Shown here: one piece after another, positions 17,009 to 58,109 of the stretch
How positions within the stretch are numbered: position 1 is the stretch's first letter
How the letters are laid out: every line of letters begins with the position of its first letter
Source: a virus
Strand: one strand, 5' to 3'
DNA length: 64,000 nucleotides
IMG/VR virus record: IMGVR_UViG_3300050821_005814
Coordinates: 32,001 to 96,000 of that record
Translations under genes and position numbers: made by a program
Notes under the pieces: generated by a model
What the model saw: the letters and a program-made list of their open reading frames with translations, nothing else
What the model was told of the DNA's origin: nothing
Databases searched by the model: none

Positions 17009-17187
17009 CAGATCAGTCCCTTCTCTCGCGCGATCCCAGTTGGGATGGTATATACATCGCCGTCACGCTCAACGAGCGCCTTAGGTAACCATACCTTCTT
17101 ATCGCCATCGCTCACGAGCCATGCAAGATCGGTCTCGTGAACGTAGTCCAAGGTGAGATCAACGATCTCGTCACCCTTCTGCGGCAT
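17008..17187 (-). CDS. Small hypothetical phage protein (59 aa)
   Basis: Read manually: MPQKGDEIVDLTLDYVHETDLAWLVSDGDKKVWLPKALVE...EKGLI; GAGGGAG SD and GGGTATATGC motif upstream. Confidence 0.7.
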   Translation of the reverse strand: MPQKGDEIVDLTLDYVHETDLAWLVSDGDKKVWLPKALVERDGDVYTIPTGIAREKGLI

Positions 17188-17509
17188 TTGACTCTCCCTC
17201 AGCTAAGGGAGCATATACCCGACGTTCAACGCATGTCCGCACTATGCTGCACATGGCGGGATAGAGACAGGCGCCGCGTAGTGAGCACTGGTAACGATAG
17301 GCAATGGCCTCGGGCGCAGGGGACGCATCATGACACGCACTAGCCCAGCCGATCATATTCGCCTGCGCGATCGCTGCGTTGCGCCTATGCGCTCGACGCA
17401 AGCACGTGTTGTACCTAGCGCGCCACCAGCGGTATTGCGTGTCAGCGGTAAGCCTGCGCGTCGCACGTTCGCGCTCCATGAGCGTCCACGCTGCGACAAA
17501 TGCTTTCAT
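17171..17509 (-). CDS. Hypothetical protein
   Basis: 112 aa, ATGA-coupled. Confidence 0.45.
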   Translation of the reverse strand: MKAFVAAWTLMERERATRRLTADTQYRWWRARYNTCLRRAHRRNAAIAQANMIGWASACHDASPAPEAIAYRYQCSLRGACLYPAMCSIVRTCVERRVYAPLAEGESNAAEG

Positions 17510-17691
17510 TTTGGCAGCAAGTGCGCGACAACGTGCGTACGATTGCCCATACGTTTCTTCGACATGACCTTGTAAGGATGCCCTTTTGGCACATGCAGCT
17601 CCATGGTGCCTGGATCAGCATAATCAGTATGCCCTTCAGCTACTGCATGCTTAAGGCTAGTCGCATCTAACCACACGTGCACCTCAACCAT
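17506..17691 (-). CDS. Small hypothetical protein with VHVWLD N-terminus
   Basis: MVEVHVWLDATSLK...ELHVPKGHPYKV. Confidence 0.55.
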   Translation of the reverse strand: MVEVHVWLDATSLKHAVAEGHTDYADPGTMELHVPKGHPYKVMSKKRMGNRTHVVAHLLPK

Positions 17692-17900
17692 CACGCACAC
17701 TTCCAGGCAGCAAGACCTAGCCCAACGCCTTCATAGAAAGAGCTATCCAAGGCATGCACAAAGTCGTGCTTGATAAAGCAGTCGAAAACAACGTTGGCTG
17801 CTACCAGCGATCCCCACAAGATCAACATGTCAATGCGACGCTTGCGGCGCTGCTCACGCACAACGCGTGTGATGGTCTCGAGCAATTGCTCGCTAGTCAT
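17691..17900 (-). CDS. Small membrane protein
   Basis: 69 aa with hydrophobic segments, coupled to TerS. Confidence 0.55.
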   Translation of the reverse strand: MTSEQLLETITRVVREQRRKRRIDMLILWGSLVAANVVFDCFIKHDFVHALDSSFYEGVGLGLAAWKCA

Positions 17901-19127: not shown

Positions 19128-19637
19128 CTATTGCACGAGCTCAACATTGGCTCGATCAAACATCAGCACGACCTCGCGCTGCATCCAACTCATGAGCAGC
19201 GCTACCCGTTGCTGATCGGTCCATGTGACGAACCCCTCGCGCAGCATACCAGTCTGATGATCGACTGCGAATGCTCCCTTTAGTATGCGTACCCTGCACC
19301 CCTCGAACAGAATAGGGCGCTCGGGATCGTCCATATTGGACATGGACTTGATCTCGTCGATCGCGCCAGGCGGCAGTGCGACGGGACAGTTCTCGCTGTG
19401 GGAGAACAACTGGCGTACGCCGCGCGTTGATACTATCTTCTTCCATGGATCGGACAGCAGGTCGAATGCAACAAAAGCGTACCGCGAGAACAATGGCTTA
19501 ATCGCTGGCGCCTTCTTACTCGTGTAGCGCCGCAGGTAGGTCGGGCAGAACGCCTCAAACCCCTGCTGCATCATATGCGCGACAGCTAGGAACTCGGATC
19601 TAGGCAGCGTGTATACGCAATACCATTCGATCGCCAT
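19128..19637 (-). CDS. NusG/RfaH-family transcription antiterminator
   Basis: WYCVYTLPRSE, PLFSRYAFV, IVSTRGV (NGN domain), KOW GCRVRILKGAF. Confidence 0.9.
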   Translation of the reverse strand: MAIEWYCVYTLPRSEFLAVAHMMQQGFEAFCPTYLRRYTSKKAPAIKPLFSRYAFVAFDLLSDPWKKIVSTRGVRQLFSHSENCPVALPPGAIDEIKSMSNMDDPERPILFEGCRVRILKGAFAVDHQTGMLREGFVTWTDQQRVALLMSWMQREVVLMFDRANVELVQ

Positions 19638-19647
19638 GCAGCACTAT

Positions 19648-19945
19648 CCCCCGTCCGACAGCTAAGTAGCTGCCGCAGACCACAGCGGTACGACCGACTG
19701 TAGCCCCGCCAAGCTGTGAACGGGGGAACCTTATAGCGACCATTTTGGTTTGGCTGCAACGCTTTGTTTTTGGTGCAGCATTTACTACGCCTGCATACTG
19801 CTAGTGCTAGTCTGACTATAGCTTGAAGTAGATCGCGACTAGCATCCAAAAGATAGCCATGAGAAAGCCTCCTTTGGCTACATCATAATAGCGGGTGAAA
19901 GTCGCGATGAAGCACCCGCTCAAGTAGAAGCTACCCCCCAGTATG
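19648..19945. ncRNA. Candidate structured RNA or leader upstream of the nusG-like gene
   Basis: ORF-free tract with at least 7 nested helices (see findings). Confidence 0.45.
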
Positions 19946-19976
19946 AGGAAGGGAATGGATGGTGCAGACAGATCTA

Positions 19977-20593: not shown

Positions 20594-20788
20594 TCATGGT
20601 TGCCAGCTATGTAGTGCTCGCGCCTCTTGATGCGCGAAAGCGCGCAAGCGGTCCGCCTCATCATCGGTAAGCCCTTGGATTCGGCCGCTCTCAGGCGAGT
20701 AGTGCTTCGCGAGCAACGCGGCATAGATACTGGCTGCTACCAACAGCAGCACATCCCTGAAATCATCCATGATGTACCCGCCGCACAA
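20594..20788 (-). CDS. Small hypothetical protein
   Basis: Short ORF in operon orientation. Confidence 0.4.
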   Translation of the reverse strand: MCGGYIMDDFRDVLLLVAASIYAALLAKHYSPESGRIQGLTDDEADRLRAFAHQEARALHSWQP

Positions 20789-21320
20789 GCGCTAGCGCGC
20801 CAAGCGCTAATGCTAGTATGAACGCACTGCGCGGTTCAGGCGTGCCAATTGAAGGCGGGAGAGGAGTACCCTCAACGCATTCGTGCAGCGCAGCATCCCA
20901 ATGATGAGCTGGTTGACACGGATGATCCTCGACAGGCGTTGTCTCAATGGCGACAATACCTGGCGTGATTATGCCGAACAGCGGGAATGCTGGTATGAAC
21001 GCGCCCCCTGGTAACTCCCCGCCGCCAAACCCGAAGGGTGCTTGCGGTACAGGGAATCCAAATGGCGGCCACCATGCTGCGTTGCCATTGTCTGCATTGG
21101 ACAAGGGAGGCGGCGCAGCCATACCTACTGGTGGGACAGGAGGTGTTGGGAACTGTGCTGTTGCTGGTGGTGGGCATGCAACAACGAGTGCCAGCACAAT
21201 GGTGGCTGGCAATGGTGGGGTTCCTGCATGCCATGCAGCAGCTCCCCATCTGGCGATCACTTCAGCTTTCGTATAGGCATGCTTGGCAACTAACACGATG
21301 CAATCACTGGCACTCGGCAT
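20763..21320 (-). CDS. Pro-rich protein with C-terminal PEP-CTERM sorting motif
   Basis: C-terminus TPEPRSAFILALALGALALVRR; start ATG 21320 after AGGAG and a GGGTATATTG motif. Confidence 0.7.
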   Translation of the reverse strand: MPSASDCIVLVAKHAYTKAEVIARWGAAAWHAGTPPLPATIVLALVVACPPPATAQFPTPPVPPVGMAAPPPLSNADNGNAAWWPPFGFPVPQAPFGFGGGELPGGAFIPAFPLFGIITPGIVAIETTPVEDHPCQPAHHWDAALHECVEGTPLPPSIGTPEPRSAFILALALGALALVRRVHHG

Positions 21321-21499
21321 CTCCTGACACTCCATAGGCTCGCATGCAATATACCCCTGTCCCCACCAATACCAATACGCTGGCGACGGGGCGCTTGCCC
21401 CGTCGCATGTTCCGAAGCGTATACGCAAGCGAAGCGCAGCGTATACGCGAAAGGAACATCGTCATGCATGCGTGTGCTAGTAGTAGGTCTAGCGGCCTA

Positions 21500-22045
21500 G
21501 ACATGGTACCCCCTACATCCAGTCTCGGTAGCCAAACCGACCCCCATTGTCACTGCGCTGCGCTTCGCTCCGCTTGTTCGTGGGGACCTGCACGACCTTG
21601 CAGGTCGTGCGTCCAGTCATTGGTTGTCTAAGCATGAGTTGCGGTAGCTGAAGGGATCGTTCAAACGATTCCAAAGCTATCAGGACACACGTACCCCATG
21701 CCGGAGTACGTAGTATCCCGCAGGACAGTAGTGCCAAGCCCCTCCTTGTGCAGGTCAGCGGTCTCACAAGTCGATACATCTCCCCGCGGTTTCTGCCGCG
21801 TTGCAAGTGGGAGGGAGTCCGGTGGGAGCAGTACGTATCTGACGGCGCAAGAACAACCGGACACTACCCGCCTGTCCTTGCTCTGGGTTGCTTTCTCTCA
21901 GAGCCCAGATCACTGAGGCATAGTCAAAGCCTCCATTCAGCTAATGTGCTCTAGGACAGTCGAGGCACCCAGTCCTGTATTCTGGATCGACCCCGCTAGC
22001 GATATGGTCCTGAGGCGGCAGCGCCGCTCGCATACATCAGCCCTT
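21500..22045. ncRNA. Candidate large structured ncRNA
   Basis: About 550 nt without a credible ORF, at least 10 helices including long-range pairings. Confidence 0.5.
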
Positions 22046-22046
22046 A

Positions 22047-22056
22047 GCATATACCC
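22047..22056 (-). promoter_or_regulatory. Phage promoter motif GGGTATATGC
   Basis: Member of a recurring GGGTATA(T/A)TG family. Confidence 0.55.
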
Positions 22057-22274
22057 GACATTGCATTCATATTGCCAGTTGGTAGCGGTGCATTGGCGTT
22101 AAGCGCTTGATCTCATTGCAATCACGCCTGTCAGAATTATCTGACTTGCGCACAACCGCCTGCATTGACTATGTACTGGACTGTTTGAAACAGGGAAAGG
22201 GCATACTGCACGATGCTATGCGCGCCAGGTATAGTAAGAAGCGTAGCTAGCACCCCGTGCGGATCCATAGGACC

Positions 22275-22766
22275 ATGGCAGAGAAGGCGACTCTCGATGA
22301 ACTGATAGCGGCGCTGTCTCAGCGCGACGCGCTCAGGATCCATAAGCAGCTCCTTCATCGATTCGATGCCAAGCAAGGCAAGGTCGCCCCATTCACATCA
22401 CAGGAAGACGACTTCTACACGGCCCTGCACCGCGTGATGAATGGGCGGTTGTTGCCAAAGCTTGAGCTCGCGACGCACAAGAAAATCCATGGGCGGAACG
22501 GTTACAAGCGTGCGGCTACGCAGCTATTCACGACGTTGAAGAATGGTAGTGACGGTACGCTGCGGCGGCCGCAAATGCTGGCGCTTGCCTACGAGGCGCT
22601 TAGCTGTCTTGCGGAGGCGATGGAGGAATGGGGCATCCCTGTCTCCGCCGCCAACTTGATTATGCAGATCGACAACAACCTTGAGCATGCCCTTAACGAA
22701 GCGTACCCGGGGTATCTCGAGAACCGCATGTTGCACTACCTAGCTCCGATGCTCGAGGCTGCATAG
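22275..22766 (+). CDS. Hypothetical protein
   Basis: First gene of the rightward arm; ATG 22275 after AGGA. Confidence 0.75.
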   Translation: MAEKATLDELIAALSQRDALRIHKQLLHRFDAKQGKVAPFTSQEDDFYTALHRVMNGRLLPKLELATHKKIHGRNGYKRAATQLFTTLKNGSDGTLRRPQMLALAYEALSCLAEAMEEWGIPVSAANLIMQIDNNLEHALNEAYPGYLENRMLHYLAPMLEAA

Positions 22767-24230: not shown

Positions 24231-25238
24231 ATGCCCTACGATTGGCGCTCTCTGCTGGACCAAGCGCGCATCCCCTGGCGCGTGAAAGGTCCCAACACAT
24301 CCAAAGGGAATGTGTCAATCGAGTGCCCATTTTGCGGCGACGATCCAAGCTTTCATTTCCAGCTTAGCGAAACGTTTGATGGCTACCGTTGCCTACGCGA
24401 CAGCAGGCACAACGGCTCGCATATGGTGCGCCTACTGGTCGCCTTAGGATATAGCCGCACCGAAGCGCAAGTACTCCTGCATGAGCATAAGCTGGACAAG
24501 AAGCCGCTCCCGCCAAAGCCGCGCGCCATTGAAGACCTGACCGACATCTGGCAGCGCTTCCCGCCAGCCGAAGACGCACCGCATAGCATGCGCTACCTGA
24601 AAGGGCGCGGCTTCACTAATCCCATGCAGACAGCTATTGACTACGATTTGCGCTATGCCAGGGCGGGCGATTGGGCGCAGCGTGTGCTCATACCATTTGC
24701 AGTTGATGGGATAGTCGTCAGTTGGGCTGGGCGCGCGACTACGAGTTACCTACGTCCTCGCTATCGTATGTATGATCCAAGTCCTCCTGGATTGATCTAT
24801 GTGCCGCGCGTCATCACGACTGAACAGACCGTTGTGATCGTCGAAGGGCAATTCGATGCACTCAAGATCGCAGTTGCAACAGAACGCGATTCCGTCGGTG
24901 TGATCGGCCTGAGCGGTAAGAACCTTGACAGCGCAGACCGTCTATTGCGCCTAGCACATGTGCTCGGCAAAAGCAGAAGGCTAATCTTGCTTGCGCTTGA
25001 TCCTGATGTCTCTGTTGGCGTTGCCAGCCATTCTATTATGCTGGTTGCGCAAGCATTGCGCTGGTGCTATGTTGCGCGCCTTCATGTGCCCGTCGGTCAG
25101 GAAGATCCAGGGGCAATGTCTTTGGGGGACGCGCAGAAGTGGATCCAAAACGCAATACGCGCAAACGCGCGAGTCTTTATGTCGGGCCGCAGTGGTCAGG
25201 CACATTCGAGGAATACGCCCGCAAGTACGCGCGCATAA
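24231..25238 (+). CDS. DNA primase (Zn finger plus TOPRIM)
   Basis: CPFCGDD...H...C; YLKGRG; RVLIP; IVEGQFDA; LDPD; EDPG. Confidence 0.9.
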   Translation: MPYDWRSLLDQARIPWRVKGPNTSKGNVSIECPFCGDDPSFHFQLSETFDGYRCLRDSRHNGSHMVRLLVALGYSRTEAQVLLHEHKLDKKPLPPKPRAIEDLTDIWQRFPPAEDAPHSMRYLKGRGFTNPMQTAIDYDLRYARAGDWAQRVLIPFAVDGIVVSWAGRATTSYLRPRYRMYDPSPPGLIYVPRVITTEQTVVIVEGQFDALKIAVATERDSVGVIGLSGKNLDSADRLLRLAHVLGKSRRLILLALDPDVSVGVASHSIMLVAQALRWCYVARLHVPVGQEDPGAMSLGDAQKWIQNAIRANARVFMSGRSGQAHSRNTPASTRA

Positions 25239-25730: not shown

Positions 25731-25740
25731 GGGTATAATG
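25731..25740 (+). promoter_or_regulatory. Phage promoter motif GGGTATAATG
   Basis: Intergenic, about 25 nt before ATG 25765. Confidence 0.6.
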
Positions 25741-27673: not shown

Positions 27674-27683
27674 TGGTATATTG
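27674..27683 (+). promoter_or_regulatory. Phage promoter motif TGGTATATTG
   Basis: Intergenic, before the histone-like gene. Confidence 0.6.
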
Positions 27684-33326: not shown

Positions 33327-33463
33327 AATGACGCGCATTGCAACTGGACTAGCGATAGCAGCAGCTATCGCTAGTATTTTTATGGGGATCCGGTTCATCA
33401 GCAATAGCTGTGCGATGGGCGACCTCAATAGCGCTTATTCTCACTCTACGCAGGAGCGCAAAG

Positions 33464-36037
33464 ATGGCGCTACCACTCAACGGTAGTCTATTTGAGGACA
33501 TTCCATTACCAACGACCATCCCAAAGACGCGTCGCTCAGGTGGCGGCGTAGCACGCGCGAAGCGCCAGCTTAGCCCAACTGAACGAGGATGCGATCACTG
33601 CCCCCTGCGCGAAACGTGGCCCCGCCTCACATCCCCACGCATGCCTGCATGCGGGAACACAGACGACCCCGACATCTTAGTGCTTGGCGAGGGGCCGGGC
33701 GAGGAAGAGGATGCAGAGGGAGAAGTGTTCATAGGCAAGAGCGGCAAGCTCCTGCGCCAATTTATCCCTGGTAGGTTTCGCGACCGCTTAGCATTCCAAA
33801 ATGCTGTGCGTTGCCGCCCAGACGACAATCAAACGCCTGACGCTGCCGAGCTACATGCATGCAGCATTCACGTCGACGCTGACATAAAGCAGCTAGGCGT
33901 TGGTTATATCCTCGGCGTTGGAGGTGTTCCGCTCTCCCGCTTCGTGCGCGGCAAGACAGCATCCATCCTTGCGATCCACGGCGTGCGCTTCCCCGTCGAG
34001 ATCAACGGTGAGACGTTATGGTACTACCCTGTGATGCACCCCTCGTTTGTCATGCGTATGGGCGATAGCAACGAAGGGCGGGGTGAAGGTCCTGCGATGC
34101 CTGTGTTCCGCGCTGACATGAAGCGCTTCTTTGCGGAAGTCGACTCATGGCCGCGTCCAGTCATCACGCCTATGAGTCCAAAGGATGTGCTGCTACCGCG
34201 GACGCGCGATGAGGCCGAGGCGCTGCTCGCTAAGATGCATGCTCCGGTCGGTCTTGATCTTGAAACGTCATCGCCGCATCCAGACCGCGTACCAAAGCCC
34301 TATATGATCGGCGCCAAACTCGTATCAGCAGCAATTAGTGACGGGAAGACAACCTTCGCGTTCGCAGTTGACGGTAACGAATGGGGACTGGACTTCCTGC
34401 TACAAATTGCAGAGGAGCACGAATGGATCGCGCAGAATGCCAGCTATGAGCTAGCCTGGCTGATCTACATGTCGCAGACAATGCGGCGCAATCGTCCGCT
34501 CAAACGATGCCAAGATACCATGGCGCTTGCGCGCATTTACCATCAGCGCGAAACTCTCCTGTCGCTCGCTGCGATCTCGCGCATACATCTCGGCGTTGAT
34601 GTCAAACAGATCATGGAGATCAACACAACGCGTCTTGATGCCTACCCAATCGAGGAGGTTTTGCAGTACAATGGGTTGGATGCACTAGCAACAGCCCTCA
34701 TCCATCGCAAACTGCATAAGCGCGTCGACCCCATGCTGTACGAGCAGATCATGGGCCGCACATACTCTGTCGTTGACATGGAGCTTGCAGGCCTGCCTGT
34801 GTCGATTGAGGTAGCTGAGAAGCTAGCGGTGAAATGGAAAGCTAAAGCAGATGAGGCTGAAGAGGCTGCTAAGAAGCTGCATGAGGTACGCGCTTATGAG
34901 GCCGCTGCGCAGGTAGCATTCTCCATCAGCAAGCCAGCGCAGGTCGGTGAAGCGCTTGTGCTGCACGGCAAGATCAACCTGCCGAAGACCGAGAAAGGGA
35001 AGCAGTACAACACGAAGGATGAGATCCTCAATGCGGAGTGCCCCGATCATCCATTAGCGAAAGCAGTGCTGAGTTGGCGTGAAGCAACGAAGGTGCGTTC
35101 GACCTATACGCTGTGTGTGATCGAGGTGCCAACCATCTACAAGGATGGCATGCTGCATCCCGGTTACAACACAATGCTCGTGTCGACCTTCCGCTTGTCG
35201 TCAGACGACCCCAACATTCAGAACTGGCCGAAGCGCAGCGCTGCGACGCGTGAGGTACGCAGCATGATTGAGGTGCCAGAAGGTTACGTTCTCGTCCCAA
35301 TGGACCAGGGGCAGATTCAGGTACGCATTATCGCAATGGCGTCTGGCGACAAGAAGCTGATCAAGAATCTCGTTGAGGGGCATGACACGCACACAGACTG
35401 GCTGAACAACACGATCGACATCTATCCCGACTACATAGACCGCCTCGCGCAGAAGGTCGGCGAGAAGGACGAGAAGAAGATCCGTAAGTACGGCCGCAAT
35501 ATCATCAAGACAGACTTCGTCTTCTACAGTCTGTTCGGCGGGGGATACAAAGGCATCGCGCGCACAACAGGCATCCCTGAGCGCCTATCAAGGGAACTGC
35601 AAGGCGAGTTCTTCCTCGAGTTCAAAGGTGTGAAGGACTGGCAGAATAGGCAGCGCAAGCAATACGCGGACACAGGCTCGATCACCGGACTGTCTGGTGA
35701 AACGCGCCATGCAATCTTGTGGGGCAATGAGCCGCTTAACACGCCGATCCAAATGGGCGAAGCGCAGATAGTCCTTGAAGCGCAAGCTGAGTTGGCGACG
35801 AAGGCGCGTGAGACCGGCGACAAGCACTACCTACCGCGCATCAGCGTGCATGATGACCTGACCTTCATACTACCCGATGACAACCGGCTCATGGGGTATA
35901 TTGAGGAGATAGCTGAGGTCATGCTGAAGGTGCGCTACGACTGGCAAATATGCCCCTTGAGCTTGGAGGTTCAGCTTGGCACCAACTGGGCGGACCTAAC
36001 TGAGGTCCATACGTTCACGGGGGACTATATGAGATGA
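33464..36037 (+). CDS. Family A DNA polymerase with N-terminal family-4 uracil-DNA glycosylase domain
   Basis: UDG: CDHC, GEGPG, FIGKSG, NAVRCRP, HPS. Exonuclease: DLET, YNGLD. Polymerase: RLSSDDPNIQN, DQGQIQVR, VHDD. Confidence 0.95.
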   Translation: MALPLNGSLFEDIPLPTTIPKTRRSGGGVARAKRQLSPTERGCDHCPLRETWPRLTSPRMPACGNTDDPDILVLGEGPGEEEDAEGEVFIGKSGKLLRQFIPGRFRDRLAFQNAVRCRPDDNQTPDAAELHACSIHVDADIKQLGVGYILGVGGVPLSRFVRGKTASILAIHGVRFPVEINGETLWYYPVMHPSFVMRMGDSNEGRGEGPAMPVFRADMKRFFAEVDSWPRPVITPMSPKDVLLPRTRDEAEALLAKMHAPVGLDLETSSPHPDRVPKPYMIGAKLVSAAISDGKTTFAFAVDGNEWGLDFLLQIAEEHEWIAQNASYELAWLIYMSQTMRRNRPLKRCQDTMALARIYHQRETLLSLAAISRIHLGVDVKQIMEINTTRLDAYPIEEVLQYNGLDALATALIHRKLHKRVDPMLYEQIMGRTYSVVDMELAGLPVSIEVAEKLAVKWKAKADEAEEAAKKLHEVRAYEAAAQVAFSISKPAQVGEALVLHGKINLPKTEKGKQYNTKDEILNAECPDHPLAKAVLSWREATKVRSTYTLCVIEVPTIYKDGMLHPGYNTMLVSTFRLSSDDPNIQNWPKRSAATREVRSMIEVPEGYVLVPMDQGQIQVRIIAMASGDKKLIKNLVEGHDTHTDWLNNTIDIYPDYIDRLAQKVGEKDEKKIRKYGRNIIKTDFVFYSLFGGGYKGIARTTGIPERLSRELQGEFFLEFKGVKDWQNRQRKQYADTGSITGLSGETRHAILWGNEPLNTPIQMGEAQIVLEAQAELATKARETGDKHYLPRISVHDDLTFILPDDNRLMGYIEEIAEVMLKVRYDWQICPLSLEVQLGTNWADLTEVHTFTGDYMR

Positions 36038-57165: not shown

Positions 57166-57552
57166 AGCTGATTCTCCTGACAAAGAGCGGGGACACGACA
57201 TTGCGTCCAACAGCATGCTAGCAGTCCCGCAGCAGCGTAGCGTTGCTCATTGCGCATCGCTGAAAAATTGGTCTGTAATAGCTGCCCTAATAGGCATATG
57301 CACGGGCATATGCAGGGAAATTGCGCTGCGCAAAACTGTGGGGGGTTTGGCTAGTTTTAGCTAGCGCAACGCTGCGAGCCAAAAGTGCGCCGTTCCGCCT
57401 AGGCGGAAGCGCAATGACCCCCTACTAACCCCTTGAAATCGTAGTGGGTTTTTATCTAGTAGTCAGATCTGCGCGCAGATAGTATATTTATGTCAATCCC
57501 CTAGCTAAATAACAGCCTAAAGAGGGGGAATGAGGCAGCGCTAGCTGCTCGC

Positions 57553-57939
57553 GGGGTCCGACCCCCCGCCCCCATTCCCAGCGGTCAACGGACTAGCTAA
57601 GCGCTGCTTAGCTGCTCCCCACCAGGACCCCTTAGCGCAGCGCAGCGCGGGATTGGGGAATGGGTGACGGAGTACCTGACGAGGACCTCTTGCTTCGGTG
57701 CGCTGACGTCTGCACCAGCAACGGGACCAGCCGGACCGCCGTGACAGACATGAGTCGGCAGCGTGCAGTATCCTAGTAGCTTCTAGGCAACGAAATGCAT
57801 GCGACGGTGCGCATAGCGCAGCGCGAGTCCCCTTAGCTAGCAGCAATGCAGCGGGAGTGGGGTAGCGCTAAGCGCGGGACTACGCGCCTTAGCATAGCAG
57901 GACGGACCACACGCTCGGTTTGGGACTCATGCTGGGTGC
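57553..57939 (+). ncRNA. Candidate structured ncRNA upstream of the early genes
   Basis: ORF-free, multiple nested long-range helices. Confidence 0.5.
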
Positions 57940-58036
57940 AAACATAAAGTTCTCTCTCATTGTTCTACTGATGAAAGCGTCAATGCTTTTGCATATGCCT
58001 CTAGCGCCGCAGCGCGGGATTAGGCGATATATGCAA

Positions 58037-58063
58037 TTGCATTGACGCTATGCAGCTATAGCA
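58037..58063 (+). promoter_or_regulatory. Putative host sigma70-type early promoter
   Basis: TTGCAT/TTGACG ... GCTATAGC just before the first leader hairpin at 58072. Confidence 0.4.
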
Positions 58064-58109
58064 CCTTACGCTGCACTGATGATTCCTGGTGCACAATGGG
58101 AGAACAAAT

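Follow-up and report, generated by a model that had tools for sequence, protein, structure and literature searches.

In this uncultured phage, the gene-free stretch at which the two genome arms diverge most likely represents a regulatory leader and not a large RNA of a new kind. We read it as an untranslated leftward leader that would begin at a distal promoter and end, ahead of the proximal late-arm promoter, in a hairpin or operator checkpoint, and we assign this arrangement a probability of roughly 0.4. The analysis was carried out on a window of 64,000 nt (bases 32001-96000 of a 106,805-nt IMG/VR virus record), and all coordinates are those of the window unless the genome is named. The feature exists, although most of it is ordinary; its statistically solid part is the pair of promoter motifs together with a palindromic module at 21383-21458. 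A large structured RNA is not supported by the computation. The elements are given below from right to left.

22257/22275-22766, plus strand: first rightward gene.
22057-22256: divergent spacer, G+C 0.46-0.50, from the distal leftward promoter to the first rightward gene.
22049-22056, minus strand: distal leftward promoter-like motif GGGTATATG, with a predicted transcript start near 22041.
21722-22041, minus strand: untranslated right half of the tract, folding at chance level and lacking a credible ORF.
21682-21720, minus strand: 17-bp hairpin, -26.4 kcal/mol on the minus strand vs -14.4 kcal/mol on the plus strand.
21643-21681, plus strand: 7+8-bp hairpin, -21.0 kcal/mol on the plus strand vs -11.7 kcal/mol on the minus strand.
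21585-21610: perfect 9-bp hairpin GCACGACCT/AGGTCGTGC, with an alternative 8-bp register.
21552-21576: run of CGCTN pentamers.
21408-21458: 51-nt near-palindrome, ATGTTCC...GGAACAT.
21383-21406: perfect 10-bp G+C-rich hairpin, ending 26 nt before the proximal promoter motif.
21348-21375, minus strand: putative proximal leftward promoter (TTGGTA, 16 nt, TATATT), containing GGGTATATT.
19128-19637, left arm: NusG-like gene in the long leftward operon (Pfam NusG, E 2e-12).

The orientations of the genes bear out the placement of the tract at the divergence of two genome arms, as the sequence-only reading had it. Rightward genes extend from ~54.26 to 98.85 kb of the genome and leftward genes lie elsewhere. 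The left arm carries the NusG-family gene, an HTH_7 protein, terminase, portal and capsid, and the right arm carries primase (24231-25238), QueC, family-A polymerase (33410-36037) and ribonucleotide reductase. The record is labelled linear. Its two ends, which lie beyond the window, are identical over 20 nt (genome 1-20 and 106786-106805), and the junction is spanned by a 220-aa minus-strand ORF with good codon usage; the contig is therefore circular or circularly permuted in the assembly. The idea that the tract marks the genome midpoint was rejected, the contig being circular in assembly and cut arbitrarily. The arms converge near genome 98.87 kb and not at the contig ends.

The leader reading draws first on two leftward copies of an 8-mer, GGGTATAT, at 22049-22056 and 21349-21356, which bracket the tract. 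This 8-mer is found 8 times in the window against 0.35 copies expected, a number that none of 100 shuffles reached. The minus-strand copies are all located at or below 22056 and the plus-strand copies all at or above 22766, such that every copy is directed along its own arm, and most of them precede gene starts by 25-45 nt. Copies with one mismatch at 25731 and 27674 are likewise located in short gaps before genes. Being enriched, gene-oriented and upstream of starts, GGGTATAT has the attributes of a phage promoter class and is treated here as a putative promoter. A conserved -35 element is not seen at most copies. A leftward promoter motif firing into the tract had been proposed at its right-hand edge, and the motif is indeed present there, on the minus strand at 22049-22056. 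This copy and the one at 17220 have 14 nt in common, and its GCTAAG extension recurs at 27674 and 28511; the motif extends to GGGTATAT(T/G)GCT(A/T)AG at three sites, among 22056(-), 27674(+), 28511(+) and 25731(+). The copy at 21349-21356 belongs to the proximal site and lies 13 nt before an in-frame ATG at 21335, the start of the first late-arm ORF. The promoter scan identified this proximal site as the sole sigma-70-like site in 21000-22600. An 11-nt element, TG(C/T)ATGCGAGC in the minus sense, follows both leftward promoters (21338-21348 and 22026-22036), at +2 and +13 from the promoter motif.

Base composition also places the tract with the leftward arm. Its GC skew (-0.04 to -0.07) and AT skew (-0.02 to -0.05) match those of the left arm (GC -0.058, AT -0.015) and not those of the right arm (GC +0.021, AT +0.077), and the cumulative G-C minimum of the window, at 22431, lies to the right of the tract. 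Both points argue for the leader reading. The G+C content of the tract is 0.58, the genome average, and the lowest value, 0.46, is reached only in 22050-22200. Because the tract sides with the leftward arm both by composition and by promoter logic, the true divergent spacer is 22057-22256. The ORF at 22257-22766, to the right of this spacer, has a coding-like codon score of 0.21, and the searches found neither relatives nor a family for it. The first rightward GGGTATAT motif overlaps the stop codon of this ORF, at 22766. Since the ORF lies upstream of that motif, it must use another kind of promoter.

The absence of a coding signal between the two promoter-like motifs is a further argument for a leader. 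The description of 21500-22045 as ORF-free holds in the sense that the segment contains no credible gene, with codon scores, ribosome-binding sites and Pfam/PHROGs searches all negative. The gene-free stretch is larger than first proposed, at ~21336-22256 or about 0.9 kb. Nowhere else in the genome does a longer stretch lack a codon-supported ORF, as judged by a crude codon filter that also misses some probable small genes elsewhere in the genome; codon-supported ORFs cover 91% of the genome. That other stretches of >600 nt without codon-supported ORFs occur counts against the leader reading; at least one of these, 17188-17896, probably holds small genes missed by the filter. The second-longest such stretch, 57217-58088 (872 nt), lies just before the hairpin-cassette array of the right arm.

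It is highly improbable that the tract conceals one or more small protein genes with atypical codon usage. Table-11 ORFs of 49-97 aa are present on the minus strand (the longest at 21513-21806), and the codon filter scores probable small genes elsewhere weakly, as seen with a likely small gene at 17171-17509 (score -0.10). The ORFs of the tract, however, all score between -0.10 and -0.22, like spurious antisense ORFs, and they overlap one another in different frames instead of abutting. None has a convincing, well-spaced ribosome-binding site plus start, and none gave a Pfam or PHROGs trace at E<=1. A search of 1.84 billion proteins with the 97-aa ORF returned only two weak, fragmented, low-complexity matches of 6 short stretches each, and a protein-coding role for this ORF was rejected. 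A recoded gene was rejected as well, given that neither TGA read as W (code 4) nor TAG read as Q opens a long frame, and so was a decayed gene with a family trace, as Pfam and PHROGs hold nothing of the kind. At the left-hand border, the PEP-CTERM-like ORF at 20763-21335 (minus strand) has a near-zero codon-usage score of 0.04, and an antisense Gly-rich ORF at 20947-21276 (plus strand) scores 0.25; this region is of Pro/Gly low complexity and codon usage does not settle the strand on which it is read.

We then come to the folding of the tract, described in the sequence-only reading as heavily base-paired. All of the helix pairs that it quoted are present where it placed them. Local hairpins do exceed chance, but 21500-22045 overall is close to the genome average: its shuffle z-scores are -2.59 (plus) and -1.61 (minus), and its per-base folding energy is ~3% below the genome mean. 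The 200-nt windows inside the tract have z-scores of -1.8 to +0.8 and are not outliers in the genome-wide scan; the sole outlying window there is 21351-21550 on the minus strand (z -3.1). The proposed long-range multibranch domain (21722-21878) does not rise above chance, with z-scores of -0.07/-0.19 for 21722-21871. The segments 21878-21912 and 21912-22042 are also at chance level (z between -0.2 and -1.7), and 21460-21580 has a z-score of about 0. About half of the tract thus folds like shuffled sequence, which counts against the leader reading. Four segments do stand above chance, with z-scores that are somewhat inflated because the segments were picked after the hairpins had been seen: 21577-21615 (-4.1 minus, -3.2 plus), 21636-21686 (-4.9 plus, only -2.2 minus), 21680-21722 (-5.3 minus, -3.1 plus) and, with the strongest structure and outside the original finding, 21376-21460 (-6.8/-8.4). 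The claim that wobble pairs favour the plus strand was not borne out, as one strong hairpin favours plus and its neighbour minus. The hairpin at 21643-21681 is strong only on the plus strand, by virtue of two G.U pairs, and this too counts against a leftward leader. The hairpin at 21682-21720 is strong only as minus-sense RNA, its G.U pairs turning into A.C on the plus strand.

When the folded segment was extended to 21376-22042, the shuffle z-score was near -5 on both strands (-5.5 on the minus strand, from only 20 shuffles). The minus-sense fold of this segment, at -290.3 kcal/mol, lies below those of all 69 other 667-nt windows of the genome; the GC-adjusted z-scores against genome windows are -2.6 (minus) and -1.8 (plus). 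There are 22 perfect hairpins of >=9 bp in the genome, 15 of them in the right-arm cassette array. Two of the seven outside this array fall in the gene-free 0.9 kb, and the 9-bp hairpin at 21585-21610 is among the seven. The hairpin count, the minus-sense fold and the z-scores of the left-end module all lend weight to the leader reading.

Structure above chance lies above all in the palindromic module 21383-21458, outside the finding as it was first framed. Two perfect 10-bp palindromes, GCGTATACGC, are located at 21417-21426 and 21439-21448, 22 bp apart centre to centre, and these two are the only exact copies in the window. The centre of the 51-nt near-palindrome, 21428-21441, has a perfect 14-nt complement at 21556-21569, within the CGCTN pentamer run, and the local hairpin 21408-21458 would face competition from pairing between these segments. 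The adjacent G+C-rich hairpin (21383-21406) is flanked 3' by CAGCGUAUUGG on the minus strand and by AUGUUCCG on the plus strand; it has no U-run on either strand and was not called by the terminator scan. In the tract itself, the scan found no hairpin with a U-run except a weak 5-bp site at 21870-21858. The sole canonical intrinsic terminator among the perfect hairpins of the genome is a perfect 12-bp hairpin followed by ATTTTTAT, at 33348-33375 (plus strand), just before the polymerase gene, and the contrast between it and the G+C-rich hairpin is a point against the leader reading. A protelomerase-type telomere site was rejected, the largest palindrome being 51 nt and imperfect.

The properties of the module also bear on a second explanation, by which the region acts as DNA, either as a replication origin or as an operator for a regulator that binds the paired palindromes. 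As an origin it might receive its primer from distal-promoter transcription, or from the DnaG-like primase of the phage acting on the hairpin cluster. The region sits at the arm divergence and adjoins the replication module (primase, family-A polymerase), with the cumulative G-C minimum nearby and the 200 bp of lower G+C (22057-22256) at its side. The identical 10-bp palindromes, two helical turns apart, resemble dimer-binding boxes, and the strongest structures, being perfect Watson-Crick palindromes, fold equally well in either strand. The skew, however, is confounded with the direction of transcription and its turning point is outside the tract, which at 0.58 G+C is not A+T-rich. Iterons or over-represented words are absent from the tract beyond the palindrome pair and the 22-nt pentamer run, and no DnaA box within 1 mismatch is nearer than 23267. 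We consider a DNA-level role unlikely on this balance.

A large phage ncRNA, the other suggestion of the sequence-only reading, received no positive support. Such an entity would be a discrete, stable minus-strand RNA of ~600-650 nt with its own function, bounded by the distal promoter on one side and the hairpins at 21458-21383 on the other. It might represent a large ncRNA of a new kind, or a pre-primer akin to ColE1 RNA II that initiates replication at the divergence for the family-A polymerase, and its functional core would be the hairpins 21585-21720 together with the two-state pairing of 21556-21569 with 21428-21441. The layout is that of an RNA gene (promoter, ORF-free body, strong double hairpin, next promoter), and the minus-sense fold is the most stable of the 70 windows compared. 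Against this, the searches with Rfam 15 (4227 models, including GOLLD, ROOL, HEARO, group I/II introns, riboswitches, 6S and tmRNA) gave no match at gathering score in the whole window and none at E<=10 in 21200-22400 on either strand, and no tRNA or tmRNA was found. The first 320 nt at the 5' end and the segment 21460-21580 fold no differently from shuffled sequence, the 200-nt windows are ordinary for the genome, and the high z-score is mostly owed to DNA palindromes, whose folding is the same in either strand. The neighbouring hairpins are in conflict over strand preference, and neither a homologue nor an internal paralogue was found. The tract resembles GOLLD, ROOL and similar phage RNAs in its ~600-nt size class and its phage location; it differs from them in matching no Rfam model and in having structure that is not above background over much of its length. 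A self-acting RNA of ~650 nt is, on these grounds, very unlikely. CRISPR, DGR or retron-like repeats were rejected for want of an internal paralogue.

Searches for relatives found no homologue of the tract in phage records, IMG/VR, JGI metagenomes or 165 retrieved loci. The tract and 20 kb around it had no DNA match among 50,697 phage records. The right-hand ORF, the 206-aa left ORF and the NusG-like protein gave no related loci in IMG/VR, and the flanking proteins match only themselves among 5.8 billion clusters. The primase search in IMG/VR produced two distant, non-syntenic loci alone, and an exact-pattern scan of IMG/VR for the paired palindromes produced two unrelated repeat loci. The TerL search returned 80 loci, at identities of <=51%; a NusG-like gene is common only to two of them, L009 and L010, and the tract is in none. 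These two and the present phage have the same order of NusG-like gene, HTH_7 protein and TerL, and the HTH_7 protein is probably the small terminase. The metagenome scan with the NusG-like alignment gave 260 relatives at <=38% identity, none with the tract or its neighbours. The other end of the 49.8-kb genome of L009 consists of densely packed co-oriented genes with no analogous tract.

No relative having been found, there is no sign of selection on the tract, which weakens the leader reading and favours a functionless spacer, in the form of a decayed gene or of filler separating two promoters, its hairpins being without function. The half of the tract that is indistinguishable from shuffled sequence fits this explanation, as does a G+C content equal to the genome average. 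Yet phage genomes are compact, this one with 91% in codon-supported ORFs, and the longest gap is here; a trace of a former gene is absent in Pfam and PHROGs; and chance is an unlikely source of the palindrome module, of the perfect 14-nt long-range complement and of the surplus of perfect hairpins. We judge a functionless spacer to be distinctly unlikely.

Returning to the leader reading, we propose the following course of events. RNA polymerase would start at the distal promoter (motif 22049-22056) and run ~650 nt without encountering a gene, at first through 320 nt of plain spacer and then through three strong local hairpins. It would reach the checkpoint at 21383-21458, consisting of the 51-nt palindrome with its two 10-bp boxes and then the 10-bp G+C hairpin, directly behind which are the second promoter (21348-21375) and the first gene of the late arm. 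The checkpoint might act as RNA, with the hairpins stopping or attenuating read-through, or as DNA, with a dimeric regulator bound at the boxes. Either mode would set the amount of transcription from the distal promoter that enters the late arm. The 14-nt complement may provide an alternative pairing that opens the palindrome hairpin. We infer promoter activity of GGGTATAT, transcription of the tract and the termination or regulator binding at its end. In the sequence-only reading, the leader had been cast as a structured one acted on by a NusG paralog. The late-operon leader is the part of that proposal that fits better, through the promoter layout, the skews and the hairpin/palindrome module at the left end; a link to the NusG-like protein found no support.

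An RfaH-type leader has the ops element GGCGGTAGnnTG on its non-template strand. The sole sense-strand match in the tract, at 21502-21513, has 2 mismatches, and there are 84 such matches in the window; no ops-like element beyond chance is thus present. The occurrence of GCGGTAGC at 21641-21648 belongs to the plus strand, which leftward transcription would use as its template. A LoaP-type hairpin with a UNCG tetraloop and an intrinsic terminator was not found in the tract either, the predicted minus-sense loops being AAGC, GCA, UUGA and GGCAU. Action of the NusG paralog on the leader accordingly found no backing.

Comparable arrangements have been described for a Bartonella gene transfer agent and for the dfn leader, which is an additional argument for the leader reading. 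A further known system is that of phage lambda. Its late leader, PR'-tR' (6S RNA), is ~200 nt long and has a canonical terminator, and Q acts at its promoter. The present tract would have the same succession of a promoter, a non-coding transcript and a stop element before the late genes, in which read-through would decide late expression; it differs from lambda in a leader of ~650 nt, a hairpin without a U-run and a second promoter after it. Another parallel is the late locus of the Bartonella gene transfer agent (BaGTA), P_bgtA-K, which has an 864-bp non-coding leader with an internal terminator and a constitutive promoter. This leader is under the control of the Q-like BrrG, and truncated reporters demonstrated both its promoter and the attenuating fragment (10.1101/2024.11.20.624540). 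In both cases many hundreds of untranslated bases separate a promoter from the first virion gene, entry into a long late operon is proposed to be gated by a hairpin in the leader, and an antiterminator-type factor is encoded by the element. The function was demonstrated by reporters in BaGTA and is a prediction from sequence here. The Q-like factor of BaGTA binds DNA at the promoter, whereas the sole candidate here is NusG-like and encoded downstream. The second promoter after the hairpins is particular to the present phage, and the two loci have no sequence similarity. A looser likeness exists to the leaders of RfaH/ops and of dfn, the latter a hairpin plus terminator under the NusG paralogue LoaP (PMC12691694), in that a NusG-family gene is in the same long operon and the leader is untranslated and contains hairpins. 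Unlike the RfaH case, the sense strand carries ops-like 12-mers no more often than chance allows; unlike the dfn leader, there is neither a UNCG-loop hairpin nor a hairpin-plus-U-run terminator. The NusG-like gene here also differs from both in having an upstream spacer of its own, in a position common to L009 and L010.

If the leader reading is true, an orphan phage gates its 60-kb virion arm by tandem promoters, a long untranslated tract and a palindromic checkpoint. This would be a further instance in which late genes are controlled through their leader, here in a lineage without cultured relatives and with its own NusG-like factor. The result is useful for annotation and for the definition of a phage promoter motif, and it leaves the picture of phage regulation unchanged. 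Its interest would rise only with the demonstration of a stable RNA or of an origin primed by RNA.

The cis site of the NusG-like protein, if there is one, may be in the spacer upstream of its own gene. This ORF-free spacer, 19638-19976 (~340 nt), is 1.7 kb further on from the tract. An ORF-free spacer of 270-340 nt is located directly upstream of the NusG-like gene in all three phages:

19638-19976, window: spacer upstream of the NusG-like gene.
730-1022, L009: spacer upstream of the NusG-like gene.
284-550, L010: spacer upstream of the NusG-like gene.

The MAFFT alignment of these three spacers revealed no sequence conservation. In the window, the minus-strand folds of 19551-19800 rank with the most stable of all 200-nt windows in the genome (z -3.3).
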